64,000 nucleotides of DNA from Vicinamibacterales bacterium (GCA_041947015.1 JBHGBL010000006.1:118675-182674); one strand, 5' to 3'. Positions 305-12,268 are shown, counted from the stretch's first letter. The notes: generated from the sequence alone by a model not told the origin. Numbers and translations are program-made.

Positions 305-713
305 CACCGGCGCCTGGTACGCCGTCGCCGATCGCTCCGACCGCCATCACGTGGAAGCCGCGCGCTTCTACGGACAGCGGGGGCCTGCAGGCGATCTCGT
401 CACGTCGGACCTCGTCGTCGCCGAGACGTGGACCCTGCTCGCGGCGCATCTCGGACGGGCGTCGGCGCTGGCCTTCTGGGAGATACTGCGAGACCTGAAG
501 GTGCCGATCCTGACGCTGGATCCGGCCGACGTGGAAGCCGCGTGGCGGATCGTTCAGGCCTTTCCAGACCAGGCCTTCAGTTTCACGGACTGCGCCTCGT
601 TCGCGCTCATGGAGCGTCTCGGCATCGACTCAGCATTCGCTTTCGACGCCCATTTCCTCGTCTACCGCTTCGGCTCGGGCCGCCGTCGCGCCTTCCGCGT
701 GTATCCCGGCTGA
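288..713 (+). CDS. vapC: PIN-domain toxin (VapC family)
   Basis: True start ATG 288 (MSIFVDTGAW); acidic PIN motifs VDT, VVAET, SFTDC, AFDAHF. Confidence 0.9.
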   Translation: MSIFVDTGAWYAVADRSDRHHVEAARFYGQRGPAGDLVTSDLVVAETWTLLAAHLGRASALAFWEILRDLKVPILTLDPADVEAAWRIVQAFPDQAFSFTDCASFALMERLGIDSAFAFDAHFLVYRFGSGRRRAFRVYPG

Positions 714-759
714 ACGCGTCGCGACTCAGAGGTGTGCCTGCGGGCGGTGGCCACGTGGC

Positions 760-1430
760 TGTACTTCTGCTCCGCTTCGAGCGCCCGCCTTGTTCGTGCC
801 TCTACGCGCTCGGGCGATTCGCCGTTGGCGGCGAGTCGGATCACGGGCCTGAATACCAGGCGCGTGGAGATCTCTCTGCGAGCGAGCTCGACCAGCTTCG
901 AGAGCCCAAGCTGTAGCCACCCTCCAGCAACGTCCGGACCTGCACGTTCTTTTCTTCGCCTCAAAACAGCTCGAGCTGATGTCGTAGAGGACTAGCCCGC
1001 CCTCTGTCAGGTGACGAGCCGCCAGCTTCTGTTCGGTCGCCTTCTGCCTCGTGAGCAGCCAGTCCATCGCGTCGTTCAGGTCATCCTCGCTGGCGCCGCT
1101 GACGCGGAGGTCCTCAGAGCGCGTCCGCGCCTGCCACCACCTGGTTGTCGCCAGCTTCGTGTGCGGAGCCACCACCCGAGCCGCGACCATCGCCGTGACG
1201 AGGTCGGCCGACGTGAAGGCCGCGAAGAGAGCAAGCGCGAGAACACCAGTCGGTCCAACGCGGTAAGCACCGCGACGGAGGGCCTCGGCGTGGGCGACTG
1301 TGCCGTCAGCCGGGCCGAGCCCGCAGCGCGGTAGTTCCTGCAACCCTTCAGGAGCCTTCGCAGGCTCCCTCGAACTGGCCAGAGGTTCTTGCGAGGATTT
1401 CGCGTGCCGATCGAGGACGCTGTTGTGCTT
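760..1430 (-). mobile_element. Degraded IS1634-family transposase relic (frameshifted, internally deleted)
   Basis: Fragments in different frames resemble IS1634 Tnp: AVLTALDRLVFSRLLSSRPSRR, DLVTAMVAARVVAPHTKLATTRWW, MDWLLTRQKATEQKLAARHLTEGGLVLYDISSSCFE, QVRTLLEGG/LQLGL; no ends recognised. Confidence 0.75.
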
Positions 1431-1910: not shown

Positions 1911-2362
1911 GGCACCCGCAAGTCAAGGTAGAACGGTTCGCTGCCCCACCAGCCGCTGGCTTCCTCGGGCGTGAGACGGACGACGACGCAATCCGGGTCG
2001 GAGGGCCCGCCTGGCCAGTAGACGCGCCAGCCCTCGTCCCAGAGCGCCTCCTTGTACTTCAGGTCTTCCAACACTTCGGTGTCGCCCGCGAGCATCACGC
2101 CCTTGGACTCGCGCGGCAGGGCGAAATAGGCCGCGGCGGAGGAATTGTCGCGCAGGTCGCGCAACTTTCCCGAGGCGGCCGAGGTGCAGAAGTAGACGGT
2201 GAAGCCGGCGGCGCGGGCGAACCGCGAGGGCCCGGGGTAGATGTCCGCGCGCCGATGGTTGACCATGGCGCGAATGCGCGGCGCCGAGCCCTTGACCGTG
2301 GCGAGGTACACGGCGTCGGACCGGTCCATCACGTCGAGGATGTCGTTCCTGCCTATCGTCAT
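1907..2362 (-). CDS. Pyridoxamine 5'-phosphate oxidase-like / general stress protein 26 family FMN-binding protein
   Basis: VYLATV..PRIRAM, YFCTS..SGK, LW..W..YW..GPSDPD pattern. Confidence 0.8.
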   Translation of the reverse strand: MTIGRNDILDVMDRSDAVYLATVKGSAPRIRAMVNHRRADIYPGPSRFARAAGFTVYFCTSAASGKLRDLRDNSSAAAYFALPRESKGVMLAGDTEVLEDLKYKEALWDEGWRVYWPGGPSDPDCVVVRLTPEEASGWWGSEPFYLDLRVP

Positions 2363-2799
2363 TTCGGTGGCTGCGGCTTGATGTACGACCAGTGCGTGTG
2401 AACTATGCGCCAGCCCTCCTCGGTCCTGCGATAGACCTCGGTGGCATTCCAGCGCGGCCCCTTGCCATCCTTGCGCCGGTAGTTGAAGGTCAGGACGGCG
2501 GCGTCGCCCATCACCTGCACGTTCGAATCCAGCATCTCTCCGGCGGCCGGCGTGCCGCTGCCGCCGAACGACTCGTAGTACTTGCGCAGGTTCTCGAGAC
2601 CGACAATCGGCCGTTCCAGAGCGGGATCGATGTAGACGACACCGGGATCGGAGATCTCCAGGAAGCCCTCGGGGTCGAGCTCGTCGGACCGGTCCAGCGC
2701 CGCGCGCTCCATGGCGATGATGGTGGCGGCGGCGGTGGGTTGCGCGGCCGGGGCACCCAGGGGCGGCAGCGGAAGCAGCGAAGGCAGCGGTTCGCTCAT
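2359..2799 (-). CDS. NTF2-like / DUF4440 (SnoaL-like) protein
   Basis: Start ATG 2799 with GAGGT RBS; IIAMERAALD, WNATEVYRR...WRIVHTHWS. Confidence 0.8.
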   Translation of the reverse strand: MSEPLPSLLPLPPLGAPAAQPTAAATIIAMERAALDRSDELDPEGFLEISDPGVVYIDPALERPIVGLENLRKYYESFGGSGTPAAGEMLDSNVQVMGDAAVLTFNYRRKDGKGPRWNATEVYRRTEEGWRIVHTHWSYIKPQPPK

Positions 2800-2826
2800 G
2801 CGCACCTCTTGAAGTTCGATGTAGAA

Positions 2827-2844
2827 TAGTCCGATATCGAACAT
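2827..2844. promoter_or_regulatory. Imperfect 18-bp palindrome TAGTCCGATATCGAACAT, candidate MarR operator between divergent genes
   Basis: CGATATCG core; related half-site AGTTCGAT at 2813-2820; AT-rich patch. Confidence 0.5.
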
Positions 2845-2862
2845 GTTGGCAAGAGAGGCACG

Positions 2863-3420
2863 ATGGCAGATCTCATCACGATTGATGTTCGAACCAGGCA
2901 GGAATGGCGCGCCTGGTTGGCGAAGAACCACGCGTCGTGTCCGGGCATCTGGCTCGTCCGACACAAGGCGCACTCCGGCGTCGAGTCGATGCCCTACGAG
3001 GACGTCGTACGTGAGGCGCTCTGCTTCGGATGGATCGACAGCCTGATCAAGCGGATCGACGACGATCGCTACATGATCAAAGTCACGCCGCGCAGGCCGG
3101 ACAGCAAGTGGTCGGCGATCAACCGGCGGCGGTGGAGAGAACTCGAGGCATCCGGCCTCCTCGCCGCGCCCGGCCTCGCCGCGGCGCCCACCGAGAAGAG
3201 GTACGCCGACAAACCGGCGGTCCCGGAGCTGCCCTCATACATTGCAGAAGCGCTCCAGACCAAGATCGAGGCCTGGCAGCACTTCCAGAAGCTGGCCCCG
3301 ACCTACCGGCGGCAGTTCGTCATGTGGATTCATACAGCCAAGCAGGCGGAAACCCGTGACAGGCGTCTTCGCGAATCGGTTGCGTTGCTGGCGGCGGGAA
3401 AAAGGCTCGGCCTCAAGTGA
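2863..3420 (+). CDS. YdeI/OmpD-associated family protein
   Basis: WRAWLAKNH, EALCFGWIDS, WSAINRRR, F..LAPTYRRQFV.WI..AKQAETR..R. Confidence 0.85.
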   Translation: MADLITIDVRTRQEWRAWLAKNHASCPGIWLVRHKAHSGVESMPYEDVVREALCFGWIDSLIKRIDDDRYMIKVTPRRPDSKWSAINRRRWRELEASGLLAAPGLAAAPTEKRYADKPAVPELPSYIAEALQTKIEAWQHFQKLAPTYRRQFVMWIHTAKQAETRDRRLRESVALLAAGKRLGLK

Positions 3421-3595
3421 GGGACGAGGCTGGATTGGCAGGGATTGATGAGGACCTGTGGTTCAGCTCCACCGACTGCCGCAGGAATTGGGAACGAGAA
3501 GCCGATGAGGTCGAGCGGAGCGAGGACCCTCGCGCTCTCGGCTAGGATTTCGAGGATTCTCCGCCAGGTCGATAGGTGCTATGATTGGGCGTTCA

Positions 3596-4138
3596 ATGCG
3601 TAGCCCTGCTGCGCCGAGCGTCGCCGCGCTGCTCCCGCGAGCGTTCACGCGTCTGGCTGAACGTCTGGCGAGGACCTGCGCAGTGCTGCTGGGCGGCTTC
3701 CACGCGGTGCTGTTCTTCGAGCGGTTGTCCTCAGGTCAGCTGCTCGACCCGATCGCCCTGACGCGGTGGATCGTCGGGCTGGTCTTGGTCGGCGTCCTGC
3801 TGGCCCTGAAGCGGTCCGGGGTTCCCCTCCTCTGGGGCCGCCGCGCCCTCGTGTTCTGGACGTTCGTTCTCTTTCTCCACTGGAGCGCGCGCGCGCCCGC
3901 CGCGCCGATTGGCGGCTTCGACGTTCCCGTCGACAGCACGCTGGTGCTCGTGGTGCTTCCGGCCGCTTGCAGCGCGGCTGGCCTCGCTCTCGGCCTGCTT
4001 GCTCTCCTCGAGGCGACCCGCCGGGGGCGCGTTGTCGCGGCTGCCGGCGCGTGGTCGGCAACGCCTGAGCACGCTTCGGCCGTTCCCGACGATGGTGCGG
4101 CCCACCAACTCTGGGCCCGGCCTCCTCCGCTCCTCTAG
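3596..4138 (+). CDS. Multi-pass membrane protein with a C-terminal RPPP motif (candidate arrest-peptide ORF)
   Basis: 4-5 hydrophobic segments, ends ...HQLWARPPPLL*; the ATG at 3581 lies inside a TGCTATGAT -10, so ATG 3596 is preferred. Confidence 0.65.
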   Translation: MRSPAAPSVAALLPRAFTRLAERLARTCAVLLGGFHAVLFFERLSSGQLLDPIALTRWIVGLVLVGVLLALKRSGVPLLWGRRALVFWTFVLFLHWSARAPAAPIGGFDVPVDSTLVLVVLPAACSAAGLALGLLALLEATRRGRVVAAAGAWSATPEHASAVPDDGAAHQLWARPPPLL

Positions 4139-4247
4139 TTCCACGCCCTTCACAGGTTCTGGCACGGACCCGCTGTACACACTGAAGGCGGCTCCTTTGC
4201 GGGCTCTGCACGGCTGAACGCCGCGCAGCGCCGAGGCAAGGCCCTCG

Positions 4248-5069
4248 ATGGAAAACCTCGTTCGGCTGTTGAATACGCTCCTGCCACTCGGCTATGGCGG
4301 GGCGCTGTCGGCCTACTCGATGGCCTTCTTTGGAGGTCAGCCGCTGGCCTCGCGCCTTGCGCGGCGCGCCATGGAGGCTACGCTCGCAGCCCACGTGCTC
4401 TTTCTCGTCGCCCTGACTGCTGTCGAGCGACACATCCCGCTCTCTTCCGGGCCCGAGATCATGACTGTCTTGGCACTGGCAGTCGCAATCGTCTACGTGG
4501 CGGTAGAGCGTCGCACCGGCGTCGAGCGTACAGGCATGTTCCTCACCCTACTGCCGCTGACGCTGCAGATCGTCTCGTCCTCCTTCCTGGAATTCCAGAC
4601 GGTATTCCCCGCGATCCTGGAGAGCCCGCTATTCGTCCTCCATACCATCGCTGCCGTGGTGGGCTATGCGGGCTTTTGCGTTTCGGCGGTCTACAGCGGC
4701 TTGTACCTGGTCTTGCACCGCTCGCTCAAGCACGGTCGGTTCGGCCTGGTGTTCGACAGACTGCCGCCACTGGAGGTGCTGGCACGCATGAGCGTCGGGG
4801 CGGCCAGAGCAGGTGTGTCCTCGCTCATGGTCACCATCGTGGTCGGGTCCGCCTGGGCGTTCAGTGCGGCTCCCGGATTCGTCCGGGATCCGAAGTTCCT
4901 TCTCACGGTAGCCGTGTGGGGGGGGTACCTGATCGCGATCATGCTGCACCGAAGGTCGTGGTGGAGCGACCGGCGCACGGTCGCGGGCTTCCTTGTCGGG
5001 TTCGTGCTGCTCGTTGGCGCCGCGCTGGCCAGCCGGCTGATCTTCGACAGCTTTCACACGTTCGCGTGA
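4248..5069 (+). CDS. ccsA: Cytochrome c biogenesis protein CcsA/HemX family
   Basis: 8 TM segments, LHTIAAVVGY, DRLPPLEVLARM, DPKFLLT..VW..Y; first gene of the hem operon. Confidence 0.8.
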   Translation: MENLVRLLNTLLPLGYGGALSAYSMAFFGGQPLASRLARRAMEATLAAHVLFLVALTAVERHIPLSSGPEIMTVLALAVAIVYVAVERRTGVERTGMFLTLLPLTLQIVSSSFLEFQTVFPAILESPLFVLHTIAAVVGYAGFCVSAVYSGLYLVLHRSLKHGRFGLVFDRLPPLEVLARMSVGAARAGVSSLMVTIVVGSAWAFSAAPGFVRDPKFLLTVAVWGGYLIAIMLHRRSWWSDRRTVAGFLVGFVLLVGAALASRLIFDSFHTFA

Positions 5070-5077
5070 GTAATCCG

Positions 5078-6370
5078 ATGGAGCTGGTGCTCGTTGGCGT
5101 GAATCACCGCACGGCCGGCGTCGACACGCGAGCCCGTTTTGCGATCGGGCCGGAAGAGGTTGGCGCCCGCCTGGTCGGCCTCCTGGACGACCGGCTCGCC
5201 TCAGAAGCCTTGTGCCTGTCAACCTGCAATCGCTTTGAGATCTACGCTGCAATCGAAGAGGAAGCGGGCGACCACGCCGGTCGTGCACGCACGATTCTCG
5301 CCGCCGTCACAGGGCAGGGCGCCGACAGCGGTGCGCCGCTCTACGTCGTGCAAGGCTGCGAGGTGGGCCGCCACGCCATGCGTGTGGCTTCCGGTCTCGA
5401 CTCGCTGGTCCTGGGTGAACGCCAGATCCTCTCGCAGGTCAAGGAAGCAGTGGCGTTGGCCCGGAAGGCCGGGACGATCGGGCCCGTGCTCGATCGGCTG
5501 TTCAACTTCGCCTTGCACACAGCCAAGCGCGTGCAAGCGGAGACCGAGCTGGCGACGGGAGCGGTGTCGGTGGCTTCGGCAGCGGTGGTGTTGGCCGAGA
5601 AGGTGCTCGGTTCGCTCACAGGCCGCGGCGCGCTGGTCATCGGCACCGGGGACACGGGCAGCCTGGTGGCGCGACATGTCGCCAAGCGCAAGCCATCGCG
5701 AATCTTCCTCGCCAACCGGACGACCGGACGCGCAGCTCCGCTTGCAGAGGAGCTCGGGGCCACCGTGATCTCCCTCGACGACATGGGCCGCGTTCTGCCG
5801 GACGTGGACGTCGTCGTCTGCGCGGCCCGGTCGCCTTTCCCTCTGCTCACCCGCGCGACGGTCCGTGCAGCGCACGCCGGCCGGAGGGGCAGGCCGCTGG
5901 TCCTCGTCGACATATCGGTCCCCCGCAACATCGATCCCGCAGCCGCCGACGGGGACGACGTGTTCCTGTATTCCATCGATGCCTTGACCGCCGTGATCGA
6001 CGGCAGCATCGCCAAGCGCCGGCGCGAGGCCGCGCGGGCCGAGGCGATCGTCGGGCAGGAGGTCGAGAAGTTCGCCAGATGGATGCGGGCACTTTCGGCC
6101 GCACCTCTCGTCCGTCAGCTGCACGATCATTTCGAGCGGGTCCGCTCGGACGAAGTCGAGCGCAGCCTTCGGCACTTCGGCCCCGCCGAGCGCGAGCACG
6201 TCGAGCGGCTGACCAGGGCTCTCGTAAACAGACTGCTGCGCGCGCCAACGGTTCGCCTCCGGGCCGACGACGTGCTGAACGGAACTGGTAGTACCTGGGC
6301 CCAGGCGGTACGCGAACTCTTCGCTCTGCCTGGCGGCTACAACGCCAAGGGGACGGACCATGACCTCTGA
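5078..6370 (+). CDS. hemA: Glutamyl-tRNA reductase
   Basis: VGVNHRTA, LSTCNRFE (catalytic Cys), SLVLGERQILSQVK, GTGDTG, DISVPRNID; start could be GTG 5066. Confidence 0.96.
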   Translation: MELVLVGVNHRTAGVDTRARFAIGPEEVGARLVGLLDDRLASEALCLSTCNRFEIYAAIEEEAGDHAGRARTILAAVTGQGADSGAPLYVVQGCEVGRHAMRVASGLDSLVLGERQILSQVKEAVALARKAGTIGPVLDRLFNFALHTAKRVQAETELATGAVSVASAAVVLAEKVLGSLTGRGALVIGTGDTGSLVARHVAKRKPSRIFLANRTTGRAAPLAEELGATVISLDDMGRVLPDVDVVVCAARSPFPLLTRATVRAAHAGRRGRPLVLVDISVPRNIDPAAADGDDVFLYSIDALTAVIDGSIAKRRREAARAEAIVGQEVEKFARWMRALSAAPLVRQLHDHFERVRSDEVERSLRHFGPAEREHVERLTRALVNRLLRAPTVRLRADDVLNGTGSTWAQAVRELFALPGGYNAKGTDHDL

Positions 6371-7384: not shown

Positions 7385-8692
7385 ATGACACACACAACCC
7401 GACATACGCTGGCGAGCGCGGCTCTTTTCGAGCGGGCGCTGACACTCCTGCCAGGCGGCGTGAACTCGCCGGTACGAGCCTTCCGCGCCGTGGGCGGAAA
7501 CCCGCTCTTCATGGCTCGCGCCGAGGGCTGCCGTGTGATCGACGAGGACGGCAACTCCTACCTCGACTACGTCGGCTCTTGGGGGCCGATGATCGTGGGC
7601 CACGCGCACCCGGAGGTGACAGGAGCCATCGCGGCACAAGCGGCCCTGGGCACCTCGTTCGGCATGCCGTCCCGGCTCGAGGTGGAGCTGGCCGAGATGC
7701 TTCGGGATTTCATCCCCTCGCTCGAACGGATTCGGATGGTGAACTCGGGCACCGAGGCGACAATGGCGGCCGTCCGTCTCGCACGAGGCGCCACCGGCCG
7801 CGAGAAGATCGTGAAGTTCGAAGGCTGCTATCACGGGCACGGCGACTCGTTTCTCATCAAGGCGGGTTCGGGAGCCGCCACCTTCGGCGTGCCCGACAGC
7901 CCGGGCGTCACGGAAGGAACTGCGCGGGACACCCTGACGGCGGTCTTCAACGACCTTGGCACCGTCGAAGAGTGTTTTGCCGCCGCTCCGAGCCAGGTTG
8001 CCGCGGTCATCGTCGAGCCGGTAGCGGGCAACATGGGAGTGGTCGCGCCGCAGGCCGGGTTTCTCGAGGGGCTGCGAGATATCTGCAGCCGGCACGGTAC
8101 AGTGCTCGTGTTCGATGAGGTGATGACCGGGTTCCGCGTCGCGCGCGGCGGCGCACAGGAGCTCTTCCGCACGAAACCCGACCTGACGACGTTCGGAAAA
8201 GTGATCGGGGGCGGGCTTCCTGTCGGTGCCTACGGCGGGCGAGCAGACCTCATGCGACATGTCGCGCCAGACGGCCCGGTCTACCAGGCAGGCACCCTTT
8301 CGGGCAACCCGCTCGCCATGGCGGCAGGTCTTGCAACCCTCCGCGTGATCGACCGCGATCCGTCCTTCTACCGCCGGCTGGATGCCCTCGGTGCGCGGCT
8401 GGAGAATGGAATTCAGGAAGCCGCCGCTCGCGCGGGCGTGCCTTGCGTGGTGGCGCGCGTCGGCTCGATGTGGACTCCGTTCTTCACGAAGGCGCCCGTT
8501 ACCGACTGGGCCTCGGCCGCTGCCTGCGATCGCGCCCGGTACGCCCGTTTCTTCCACGCGATGCTCGACCGCGGGGTCGTCCTGGCGCCCTCCCAGTTCG
8601 AGGCGAACTTCATCTCGGCCGCCCATACCATGGATGACATCGATCGGACGATAGCGGCGGCCGCCGCCGCATTCGAGGCGGCGCGTGCCTGA
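7385..8692 (+). CDS. hemL: Glutamate-1-semialdehyde 2,1-aminomutase
   Basis: [53 protein letters not shown]. Confidence 0.97.
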
Positions 8693-11263: not shown

Positions 11264-12268
11264 ATGAGCGAAGCGTGCCGTGCAGCTCCCATCGGTGTTC
11301 TGCTGTTCAACCTCGGTGGACCCGACAGCCTGGCTGACGTGGAGCCCTTCCTGGTGAGGCTGTTCTCGGACCGCGACATCATCGAGCTGCCGCTTGGCGG
11401 ACTCGTGCAGCCCCTTTTCGCCAGGGCGATCGCGAAAGCTCGCGGGCCATCGGTCCGCCGCAATTACGCCTCCATTGGAGGCAAGTCCCCCCAGAAGGAG
11501 TTCACGACGGCACAAGCGGTGGCTCTCCAGGCGCGGCTCGATGACGCCGGCATCAGGCGGTGCGTCGTCGGGATCGCCATGCGTTACTGGCGGCCCGATA
11601 CCGCGACGGCCCTGGCCGAGATGGCGCGGTCGGGGGTCTCGCGTCTGGTGACGCTCACGCTCTACCCTCAGTATTCCCGGGCCACTACAGGCTCGTCGCG
11701 GCGCGAACTGGATCGCGTTCTGGCTCGTGCGGAGTGGCAAGGCAGGTTCCAGGTCAGCCACATCGAGTCCTACCCCGATCATCCGTTGTACCTGGAGGCC
11801 ATGACGGACACCGTCCGCAGCGGCCTCGAACGCTTCCCGCCAGAGAGCCGCGGCGAAGTCGTGCTTCTGTTCAGCGCACACGGCCTGCCGAAGAAGTTCG
11901 CCGACGCCGGCGACCCGTACGTCGAGCACGTCGAACGGACCATCGATGGGATCCTCGCCCGCCTCCGTATTCCGAACCGGCACGAGATCGGCTTCCAGTC
12001 ACGCACGGGTCCGGTCGAGTGGATCGGCCCCGACACCGCAGAAGTGCTGCAACGGCTCGGCGGCGAGGGTGTGAAGCGGGTTCTCGTGGTTCCCGTGTCC
12101 TTCGTCTCCGATCACATAGAAACGCTTTACGAGGTCGACCAGCTGTTCCGGGAAGACGCCAGGCAAGCGGGCATCACCGATTACCGCAGGACGGATGCGC
12201 TCAACACCCATCCGCTCTTCATCGCTGCCCTGGCGGACCTCGTCGAGCACCACCTGGCGTCCTCATGA
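11264..12268 (+). CDS. hemH: Ferrochelatase
   Basis: LFNLGGP, Y..IGGKSP, MRYWRP, LYPQYS, FSAHGLP, FQSRTGP..W, FVSDHIETLYE. Confidence 0.96.
   Translation: MSEACRAAPIGVLLFNLGGPDSLADVEPFLVRLFSDRDIIELPLGGLVQPLFARAIAKARGPSVRRNYASIGGKSPQKEFTTAQAVALQARLDDAGIRRCVVGIAMRYWRPDTATALAEMARSGVSRLVTLTLYPQYSRATTGSSRRELDRVLARAEWQGRFQVSHIESYPDHPLYLEAMTDTVRSGLERFPPESRGEVVLLFSAHGLPKKFADAGDPYVEHVERTIDGILARLRIPNRHEIGFQSRTGPVEWIGPDTAEVLQRLGGEGVKRVLVVPVSFVSDHIETLYEVDQLFREDARQAGITDYRRTDALNTHPLFIAALADLVEHHLASS

Follow-up and report, generated by a model that had tools for sequence, protein, structure and literature searches.

Ahead of the heme-biosynthesis genes in a Vicinamibacterales genome lies a membrane-protein gene, here called orfX, whose product ends in the motif Arg-Pro-Pro-Pro (RPPP). 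The gene was found in a 64,000-nucleotide (nt) stretch of DNA (GCA_041947015.1, JBHGBL010000006.1:118675–182674), referred to below as the window, and all coordinates count from its first letter. On balance, we favour reading orfX as a heme-operon leader gene that belongs to a new family of RxPP translation-arrest regulators, where x is a variable residue. It would then resemble CruR, the copper-responsive upstream regulator of Bordetella pertussis (Bp2923, DUF2946; Roy et al. 2022, PMC9426467). The family as a whole is probably a nascent-chain switch for heme supply. Four things that can be observed directly carry the case: the anatomy of the gene, the conservation of its motif, the spacing of its parts and the gene neighbourhood. 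The gene and its ending are as follows.

3596–4138, + strand: orfX, from ATG 3596 to TAG 4136–4138; 180 amino acids (aa), four predicted transmembrane (TM) helices
4118–4129, + strand: RPPP motif (CGG CCT CCT CCG), of the RxPP arrest type, followed by Leu-Leu and the stop
4136–4138, + strand: TAG stop codon of orfX, two codons past the motif

Conservation of the RxPP ending

The orfX product ends HQLWARPPPLL at its stop codon (fuller C-terminal sequence AAHQLWARPPPLL, from translation of the window). The open reading frame (ORF), its 180-aa multi-TM product and this ending had been described in an earlier sequence-only reading of the window; a check of the sequence and the four helices of an AlphaFold2 model agree with that description. 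The first search returned three proteins, and the two distant ones end ARPPPQR and SRAPPACCLA at their stops. Homologues occur in 10 of 61 related genomes and in 18 of 401 genomes of the phylum, with one copy per genome. The 27 proteins inspected first comprised 24 from the genomes of relatives, two from databases and the window's own, and all of them terminate in R-[A/P]-P-P plus 1–10 residues. Profile searches then gave 191 and 142 proteins, all of them annotated as ‘hypothetical’, Pfam-free and from Acidobacteriota/Vicinamibacterales. An exhaustive search of 1.84 billion representatives identified 609 clusters, defined at 50% identity, with an E limit of 0.001; at a limit of 1e-10, 478 remained.

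Among 382 family proteins that were fetched, 367 (~96%) carry RxPP within their last 25 residues, so the tail singled out in the sequence-only reading is kept in its homologues. The 15 proteins that lack the motif look like truncated or frameshifted gene calls: those with a listed alignment match the profile N-terminally only, and several others read through into hemA or have shifted frame. The motif is RPPP in 276 of the 367, RAPP in 86 and RGPP in 3. Its distance from the stop is also conserved, with a tail of two residues in 181 proteins and of 1–5 residues in 334.

Invariant alignment columns are H41, L44, G52, W63, W93, H100, R180, P182 and P183, in the numbering of a 185-aa product that begins at an alternative upstream start, and G86 and A89 are nearly invariant. 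The 40 residues ahead of the motif are otherwise variable, and identity within the family is 24–55%. Phe or Leu occupies the third position before the motif Arg in 213 of 232 proteins, and the residue immediately before this Arg is Pro, Ser or Ala. Position 181 varies among Pro, Ala and Gly while Arg180 stays invariant, and the alignments thus indicate that the conserved unit is R-x-P-P. Poly-proline was also considered, the window itself having three consecutive prolines, and was rejected as the conserved element on the same grounds. The motif codons change synonymously between loci (Arg, CGG/CGC/CGT/CGA/AGA; Pro, CCT/CCG/CCC/CCA), which points to selection on the peptide and not on an RNA word.

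A separate ORF with an ending of this kind was observed on the minus strand of contig C31 of the same genome. It ends near position 8644, encodes 116 aa with a hydrophobic N-terminal stretch and terminates in KLAVARTGFRPPPP. It may be another RxPP-terminated leader candidate.

Relation to the RxPP arrest class

Random-library screens have yielded RxPP arrest sequences with x = G, A, S or P, and an Ala-to-Pro change in ApdA and ApdP keeps partial arrest (Fujiwara et al. 2025, PMC12992588). RAPP and RGPP are proven arrest motifs and are experimentally the strongest cores (PMC12992588); Ala or Gly at x is arrest-competent, and Ser, Pro or Asp is partly so. The proposal that RPPP in orfX is a variant arrest motif is therefore consistent with the published arrest-competent set (PMC12992588). 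RAPP-like words are strongly avoided in bacterial proteomes because they impede translation, and they are enriched near the C-termini of small secretory or membrane proteins encoded upstream of TonB receptors and metal genes (PMC12992588). The orfX family fits the sequence-feature definition of this class: it has a core with a competent x residue near the stop, in a membrane protein of 150–200 aa (<300 aa) encoded upstream of, and co-oriented with, the next gene.

Gene neighbourhood

The first gene after orfX begins 109 nt downstream on the same strand, as the sequence-only reading had placed it.

4248–5069, + strand: gene for a HemX-like Cytochrom_C_asm membrane protein, first after orfX, starting at ATG 4248
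5078–6370, + strand: hemA (glutamyl-tRNA reductase; domains GlutR_N, Shikimate_DH and GlutR_dimer)

In the window, hemA is followed by hemC, hemL, hemE, hemN and hemH. The gene at 4248–5069 had been labelled ccsA, and this label does not hold. Its product matches Pfam Cytochrom_C_asm at 62.8 bits (cut-off 29.9) and the CcsB model TIGR03144 at 60.2 bits, against a cut-off of 187.6. A CcsA/CcsB cytochrome c synthase was rejected because the score is far below the CcsB cut-off and the gene lies directly before hemA. By these matches and this position, the product is probably HemX-like, a modulator of glutamyl-tRNA reductase and not a cytochrome c synthase.

At every locus inspected orfX is co-oriented with its neighbours and is the first gene, and the spacer to the next gene is 57–192 nt across 28 loci. 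The downstream gene is conserved in kind, being hemA, hemX-hemA or a heme-receptor-like TonB receptor. Among the heme-type loci, hemA follows orfX directly in L002, L003, L017, L034, L036 and L037, and a HemX-like gene stands directly after orfX and before hemA in the window, L022 and L035. The longer heme-type contigs continue with hemC-hemD-hemB-hemL-hemE-hemN. Receptor-type loci contain orfX and a TonB-dependent receptor (CarboxypepD_reg-Plug-barrel), and an unannotated multi-TM protein may accompany the two.

Two full-length receptors from the latter loci score 181 and 177 bits with TIGR01785 (heme/hemoglobin; curated cut-off 317 bits) and 167 and 166 bits with TIGR01786 (hemoglobin/transferrin/lactoferrin; curated cut-off 324 bits), and other receptor types score ≤81. 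Judged by these models, the orfX-linked TonB receptors are closest to the heme/hemoglobin subfamilies. Their sequence matches in the PDB lie for the most part within the plug domain and give no clue to the substrate.

The receptor-linked multi-TM protein is 223–259 aa long and 46–48% identical between loci; its gene follows the receptor gene in some loci and lies between it and orfX in others. No Pfam or NCBIfam family matches the protein. We observed it at 12206–12877 in L029, 12378–13079 in L031, 2012–2791 in L008 and 673–1407 (minus strand) in L026, with conserved HYIP..TT, HLLWW..G.A.YG.GTL.E and ILPGIGG motifs; it holds the position that PepSY_TM has in CruR operons. In L028, the multi-TM protein and the TonB receptor share one open frame (2045–3340) with no stop between them and a signal-peptide-like stretch, AAIALLLFAASSVSAQT, at the junction; they may be genuinely fused or may be separate genes that happen to share a frame. 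A divergent Trp_halogenase/FAD-type oxidoreductase gene is located upstream of receptor-type orfX in L010, L020, L021 and L031.

Protein body and membrane geometry

The AlphaFold2 model of orfX, built from a 56-sequence alignment (mean predicted local distance difference test score, pLDDT, 73), contains helices at residues 14–51, 57–78, 87–101 and 119–158 in the 185-aa numbering. A Foldseek search of this model against the PDB returned no match. Two histidines, in the FHAV and FLHWS segments, had been pointed out as possible ligand-binding residues, and the alignments identify them as the two invariant histidines of the family.

3701–3703, + strand: codon of the invariant His in TM1 (H41 in the 185-aa numbering, H36 from ATG 3596)
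3878–3880, + strand: codon of the invariant His in TM3 (H100 in the 185-aa numbering, H95 from ATG 3596)

The positive-inside rule, applied to the charged loops, predicts that both the N- and C-termini are cytoplasmic; both invariant histidines are therefore expected near the outer ends of TM1 and TM3. In the model they lie at similar predicted membrane depth.

The spacing of these elements is tightly kept among 341 proteins. The two histidines are separated by 59 residues (58–59), and the second lies 77 residues before the motif Arg (5th–95th percentile, 74–80). Between the end of the last hydrophobic 19-residue stretch and this Arg lie a median of 28 residues, and TM4 would therefore be just leaving the exit tunnel when the ribosome is at RxP/P. 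Translocon force-profile work indicates that at such a distance of ~28 residues membrane insertion pulls on the nascent chain.

Reading frame and promoter-like element

Searches of Pfam and NCBIfam with orfX gave no match at E up to 0.1. The GC content of its three codon positions is 0.77, 0.56 and 0.82, the same pattern as in the neighbouring hem genes, and the difference between positions 3 (0.82) and 2 (0.56) argues that the frame is coding. An in-frame ATG at 3581, upstream of ATG 3596, offers the alternative start that gives 185 aa. The public gene call for orfX (P0001) begins instead at GTG 3683 and yields 151 aa, with most of TM1 lost. We favour ATG 3596 over GTG 3683 on the evidence of the homologues and of a conserved −10-like hexamer.

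3577–3585, + strand: extended −10-like element TGCTATGAT, with hexamer TATGAT at 3580–3585, 10 nt before ATG 3596

The claim that orfX has an extended −10 element of its own is supported by comparison: of 29 homologous loci, at least 17 have a TAnnnT hexamer, such as TACAAT, TAGAAT or TAGACT, 12–16 nt ahead of the likely start codon. The element has no −35 partner, and a scan for two-hexamer sigma-70 promoters did not list TGCTATGAT. Conservation of the hexamer just before the start supports a promoter proper to orfX, a leaderless or very short-leader mRNA and a start at ATG 3596. Further upstream, positions 50–713 of the window contain overlapping genes for an RHH_1 (ribbon-helix-helix) protein and a PIN-domain protein, resembling a VapBC-like toxin–antitoxin pair.

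The spacer and the 3′ end of orfX

Four segments around the end of orfX are relevant to how a stall could be communicated to the next gene.

4139–4247, + strand: GC-rich spacer of 109 nt, with stem-loops at ~4166–4195 and 4202–4232 and no U-tract terminator
4060–4180, + strand: C-rich, G-poor stretch centred on the motif, whose middle 60 nt contain 27 C and 15 G
4110–4124, + strand: 5′ arm of a predicted pairing, covering codons L-W-A-R-P-P, within the footprint of a ribosome stalled on RPP/P
4233–4248, + strand: 3′ arm of this predicted pairing, GAGGCAAGGCCCUCGA, from the Shine-Dalgarno-like region to the start codon of the HemX-like gene

A separate promoter or terminator in the spacer would uncouple orfX from the genes behind it. 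The sequence scan found no sigma-70-like promoter or terminator-like site in 4139–4247, and its sole terminator-like site is inside the next gene, at chance level. An Rfam scan of 3300–4500 at E up to 1 gave no match, and hence no known riboswitch or leader RNA. Strong hairpins (−15 to −33 kcal/mol) are present in the spacers of 25 of 28 loci. The fold of the whole region is no more stable than that of shuffled sequences (z = −0.87 and −0.28).

All 25 loci compared show the excess of C over G when windows are centred at −30, 0 and +30 nt, and it holds too in a 60-nt upstream window that contains no motif codons. By analogy with CruR, the stretch at 4060–4180 is a candidate site of Rho loading. 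The genome does encode Rho: two full-length rho genes were observed, at C2:132369–133610 and C31:379069–380304, scoring 729 and 711 bits, above the curated cut-off.

An RBS-sequestering hairpin, in which the ribosome-binding site (RBS) of the next gene is masked, had also been suggested, and a pairing of this kind is predicted. The duplex between 4110–4124 and 4233–4248 has a predicted energy of −22.5 kcal/mol, and 4% of synonymous recodings of the window's sequence pair equally well (z −2.1).

Proposed mechanism

We infer stalling, its direction of control and its ligand as follows. The mRNA would start at or just before ATG 3596, so that the first ribosome follows closely behind RNA polymerase. 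TM1–TM3, with the His pair near the outer membrane face, would be inserted before the ribosome reaches Arg-Pro-Pro. There, two codons short of the stop and with the codon for the last Pro in the A site, the ribosome would stall, peptide-bond formation being blocked as in RAPP, RGPP and RAGP peptides; ~28 residues would then separate the catalytic centre from the end of TM4. In this position it would cover both the C-rich end of the ORF and the sequence able to pair with the ribosome-binding site of the next gene. As long as the stall lasts, hemX-hemA would stay on. The stalled ribosome could protect the transcript from Rho, as happens with CruR, or it could leave the Shine-Dalgarno region free, as with SecM. 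A force that pulls on the nascent chain or folds it would end the stall and turn the operon down. Insertion of TM4 would supply this force, possibly with help from heme held between the two histidines.

A stronger form of this mechanism, which we regard as possible but doubtful, makes orfX a co-translational heme sensor: the His pair would ligate heme or a late tetrapyrrole, and packing of TM4 would release the RxPP arrest. Expression of the operon for heme synthesis, or in relatives for heme-type uptake, would then cease, through Rho or because the ribosome-binding site is masked again. Heme is suggested as the ligand because genes for synthesis and for heme-type uptake should both fall with heme sufficiency, because the two histidines never vary and are predicted to sit equally deep in the membrane, and by analogy with copper sensing by nascent CruR. 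Heme is preferred to iron because iron would be expected to drive synthesis and uptake genes in opposite directions.

Evidence against the arrest-leader reading

Several observations weigh against an arrest leader for heme supply. Four coding-like ORFs in the genome of origin end in R[APG]PP within 10 residues of the stop and ~5 are expected by chance, so that the RPPP ending of the window is not significant taken alone; alignments across the family, and not this single case, are what give the ending its significance. RPPP is a weaker arrest core than RAPP or RGPP in published tests, and arrest at RPPP could be relieved by elongation factor P (EF-P). TM1–TM3 are far better conserved than typical leader peptides, and the mature orfX protein may have a job of its own because this body is so well conserved. 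Both receptors score below the curated cut-offs of TIGR01785 and TIGR01786. Heme receptors carry a His between their FRAP and NPNL boxes, and none was seen by eye between the FRAP-like and NPNL-like boxes in one receptor translation.

The RNA evidence is also mixed. Natural codons pair better than synonymous recodings across loci (mean z −0.56, p ~0.01–0.02), although these loci are not all independent. The Shine-Dalgarno region shares 0.29 of its pairing with the stall footprint against 0.015 with upstream control footprints (mean, 25 loci), a comparison confounded by distance. The strong spacer hairpins lie at no fixed distance from the stop (−12 to +57 nt). When the footprint is forced to be unpaired in an equilibrium model, accessibility of the Shine-Dalgarno region is not raised (0.35 versus 0.34). 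A simple unmasking model is thus not supported thermodynamically, though the partner-specific pairing and the codon choice point that way, and the proposed masking of the ribosome-binding site is best described as suggestive.

Alternative explanations

The same conserved body could belong to an ordinary heme-handling membrane protein, such as a four-helix protein that binds b-type heme or chaperones heme, or a partner of HemX/HemA or of the receptor, with the RxPP tail serving as an interaction, sorting or degradation motif that has no role in cis-regulation. We consider this explanation unlikely. It accounts well for the strong conservation of TM1–TM3, including the invariant H41, W63, W93 and H100 and the nearly invariant G86 and A89, for a His pair 59 residues apart at similar predicted depth, and for the co-occurrence of orfX with heme genes. 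A product of 150–200 aa with four helices is also larger and more structured than most leader peptides. The tail is harder to accommodate: we know of no bacterial tail motif of the form R-x-P-P, and the residues allowed at x (P, A and G) are among the arrest-competent ones. The motif lies 1–10 residues from the stop of a first gene that is followed by a long structured spacer, as in arrest leaders. RxPP is avoided in bacterial proteomes (PMC12992588), yet it is invariant in this family. In any case, orfX could act both as a mature protein and as a leader.

A second possibility is that the proline run causes an EF-P-dependent pause that serves insertion of TM4 or throttles the yield of orfX itself, leaving the downstream genes uncontrolled. 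PPP in CadC, for instance, throttles the yield of CadC. Three consecutive prolines occur in 276 of 367 members, and with a median gap of 28 residues a pause would fall just as TM4 emerges. RAPP or RGPP, with only two prolines, occurs in a quarter of the family, however, and the Arg is invariant, which fits RxPP arrest better than a poly-Pro pause. Published RAPP and RGPP arrests are refractory to EF-P (PMC12992588). A pause of this kind also leaves unexplained the first-gene position before heme genes, the long spacers and the C-rich stretch, and we regard it as improbable.

That orfX or its ending is a functionless chance product of a GC-rich genome, in which Pro, Arg and Ala codons are common, agrees with the chance frequency of such endings in the genome of origin, but is refuted by the family data (gene-like codon-position GC content, 609 homologous clusters, a motif that is invariant despite synonymous codon changes, and conserved synteny), leaving it a negligible prospect.

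Significance

RxPP arrest leaders, including those before TonB receptors, are already published. What appears new in the orfX family, as judged from its sequences, is a polytopic, non-DUF2946 protein with a mostly RPPP core and heme genes as the target. The sequence-only reading knew of no arrest peptide described for a heme-biosynthesis operon, and our literature search likewise found no paper on an arrest peptide before hemA. Feedback on bacterial heme synthesis at hemA includes proteolysis of HemA, HemX in Firmicutes and Irr in rhizobia; to our knowledge, it is understood in few model organisms only. As far as we know, nascent-peptide switches have been linked to protein export, antibiotics, amino acids and copper.

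Because the family precedes both heme-synthesis operons and heme-type receptors, a conserved RxPP leader whose polytopic sensor body bears histidines would carry the arrest-peptide principle into cofactor homeostasis. RPPP would be a natural and widely used arrest core. An unannotated family of several hundred clusters would gain a name and a probable role, and a testable hypothesis is provided for the abundant but poorly studied soil Acidobacteriota. If the heme-sensor proposal were true, orfX would be the first nascent-chain sensor of a tetrapyrrole and a new answer to the question of heme feedback onto hemA.

Comparison with known systems

HemX bears on the genes downstream of orfX. Choby et al. 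2018 (PMC5801465) reportedly found that HemX modulates the abundance of glutamyl-tRNA reductase and thereby regulates heme biosynthesis. HemX of Staphylococcus aureus and Bacillus subtilis is presumably a Cytochrom_C_asm-type protein encoded next to hemA, and the gene at 4248–5069 would then be of the same type. HemX acts post-translationally on the enzyme; it is distinct from orfX and has no arrest motif. In the window, the HemX-like gene lies upstream of hemA and behind orfX.

SecM of Escherichia coli is a secreted protein of ~170 aa that regulates secA and carries a RAGP arrest core four residues before its stop. Its stall opens a hairpin that masks the Shine-Dalgarno sequence of the next gene; the arrest ends when the nascent chain is pulled. 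SecM and orfX are alike in size and in having an arrest-type core close to the stop. They differ in that SecM is secreted and has a different upstream arrest sequence, and the two are not homologous.

ApdA, ApdP and ApcA are RAPP arrest peptides encoded upstream of Sec/YidC genes (Sakiyama 2021, PMC7897499; Morici 2024, PMC10951233; Fujiwara 2024, PMC10987492). They share with orfX an R-A/G-P-P core with Pro-tRNA in the A site, an N-terminal localization signal and a near-C-terminal motif upstream of the regulated gene. They differ in being short, single-anchor peptides of unrelated sequence that monitor export or insertion and regulate secDF or yidC. Their arrest has been demonstrated biochemically and structurally.

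The survey of Fujiwara et al. 2025 covers Acidobacteriota proteomes and describes small proteins ending in RAPP or RGPP upstream of TonB receptors and metal genes in many phyla (PMC12992588). It is limited to RAPP and RGPP, and the RPPP majority of the orfX family falls outside it. Most upstream ORFs of its TonB class have a signal peptide, in contrast to the four TM helices of orfX. Glutamyl-tRNA reductase, hemA and cytochrome c assembly were not found in the portion of its supplementary tables that was accessible.

CruR is the closest experimental model, and comparison of the two systems suggests the same layout and logic in orfX. In CruR, the lead ribosome protects a C-rich site of Rho loading while it is stalled, and both Rho dependence and release by ligand have been shown (PMC9426467). 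Both proteins have RxPP a few residues before the stop, a C-rich 3′ end and a long GC-rich spacer (162 nt in CruR, 57–192 nt in the orfX family), and in both the RxPP motif stands at a fixed distance from another element, the ligand-binding motif in CruR and the His pair, a putative sensing element, in orfX. CruR has a signal peptide, a CXXC motif and RAPP; orfX has four TM helices, the His pair and mostly RPPP, and no conserved Cys pair or CXXC motif was seen in the orfX family alignments. The two proteins show no homology in sequence. Membership of orfX in DUF2946 was considered and rejected, as orfX has no Pfam match and the precomputed Pfam assignment is empty for all listed homologues. 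The targets differ as well: copper genes for CruR, and heme synthesis or heme-type receptors, in Acidobacteriota, for orfX. In the window, heme-synthesis genes follow orfX in place of a transporter. The receptor-type orfX loci match the layout of the CruR operon, in which the upstream ORF is followed by a TonB-dependent transporter and an inner-membrane protein.

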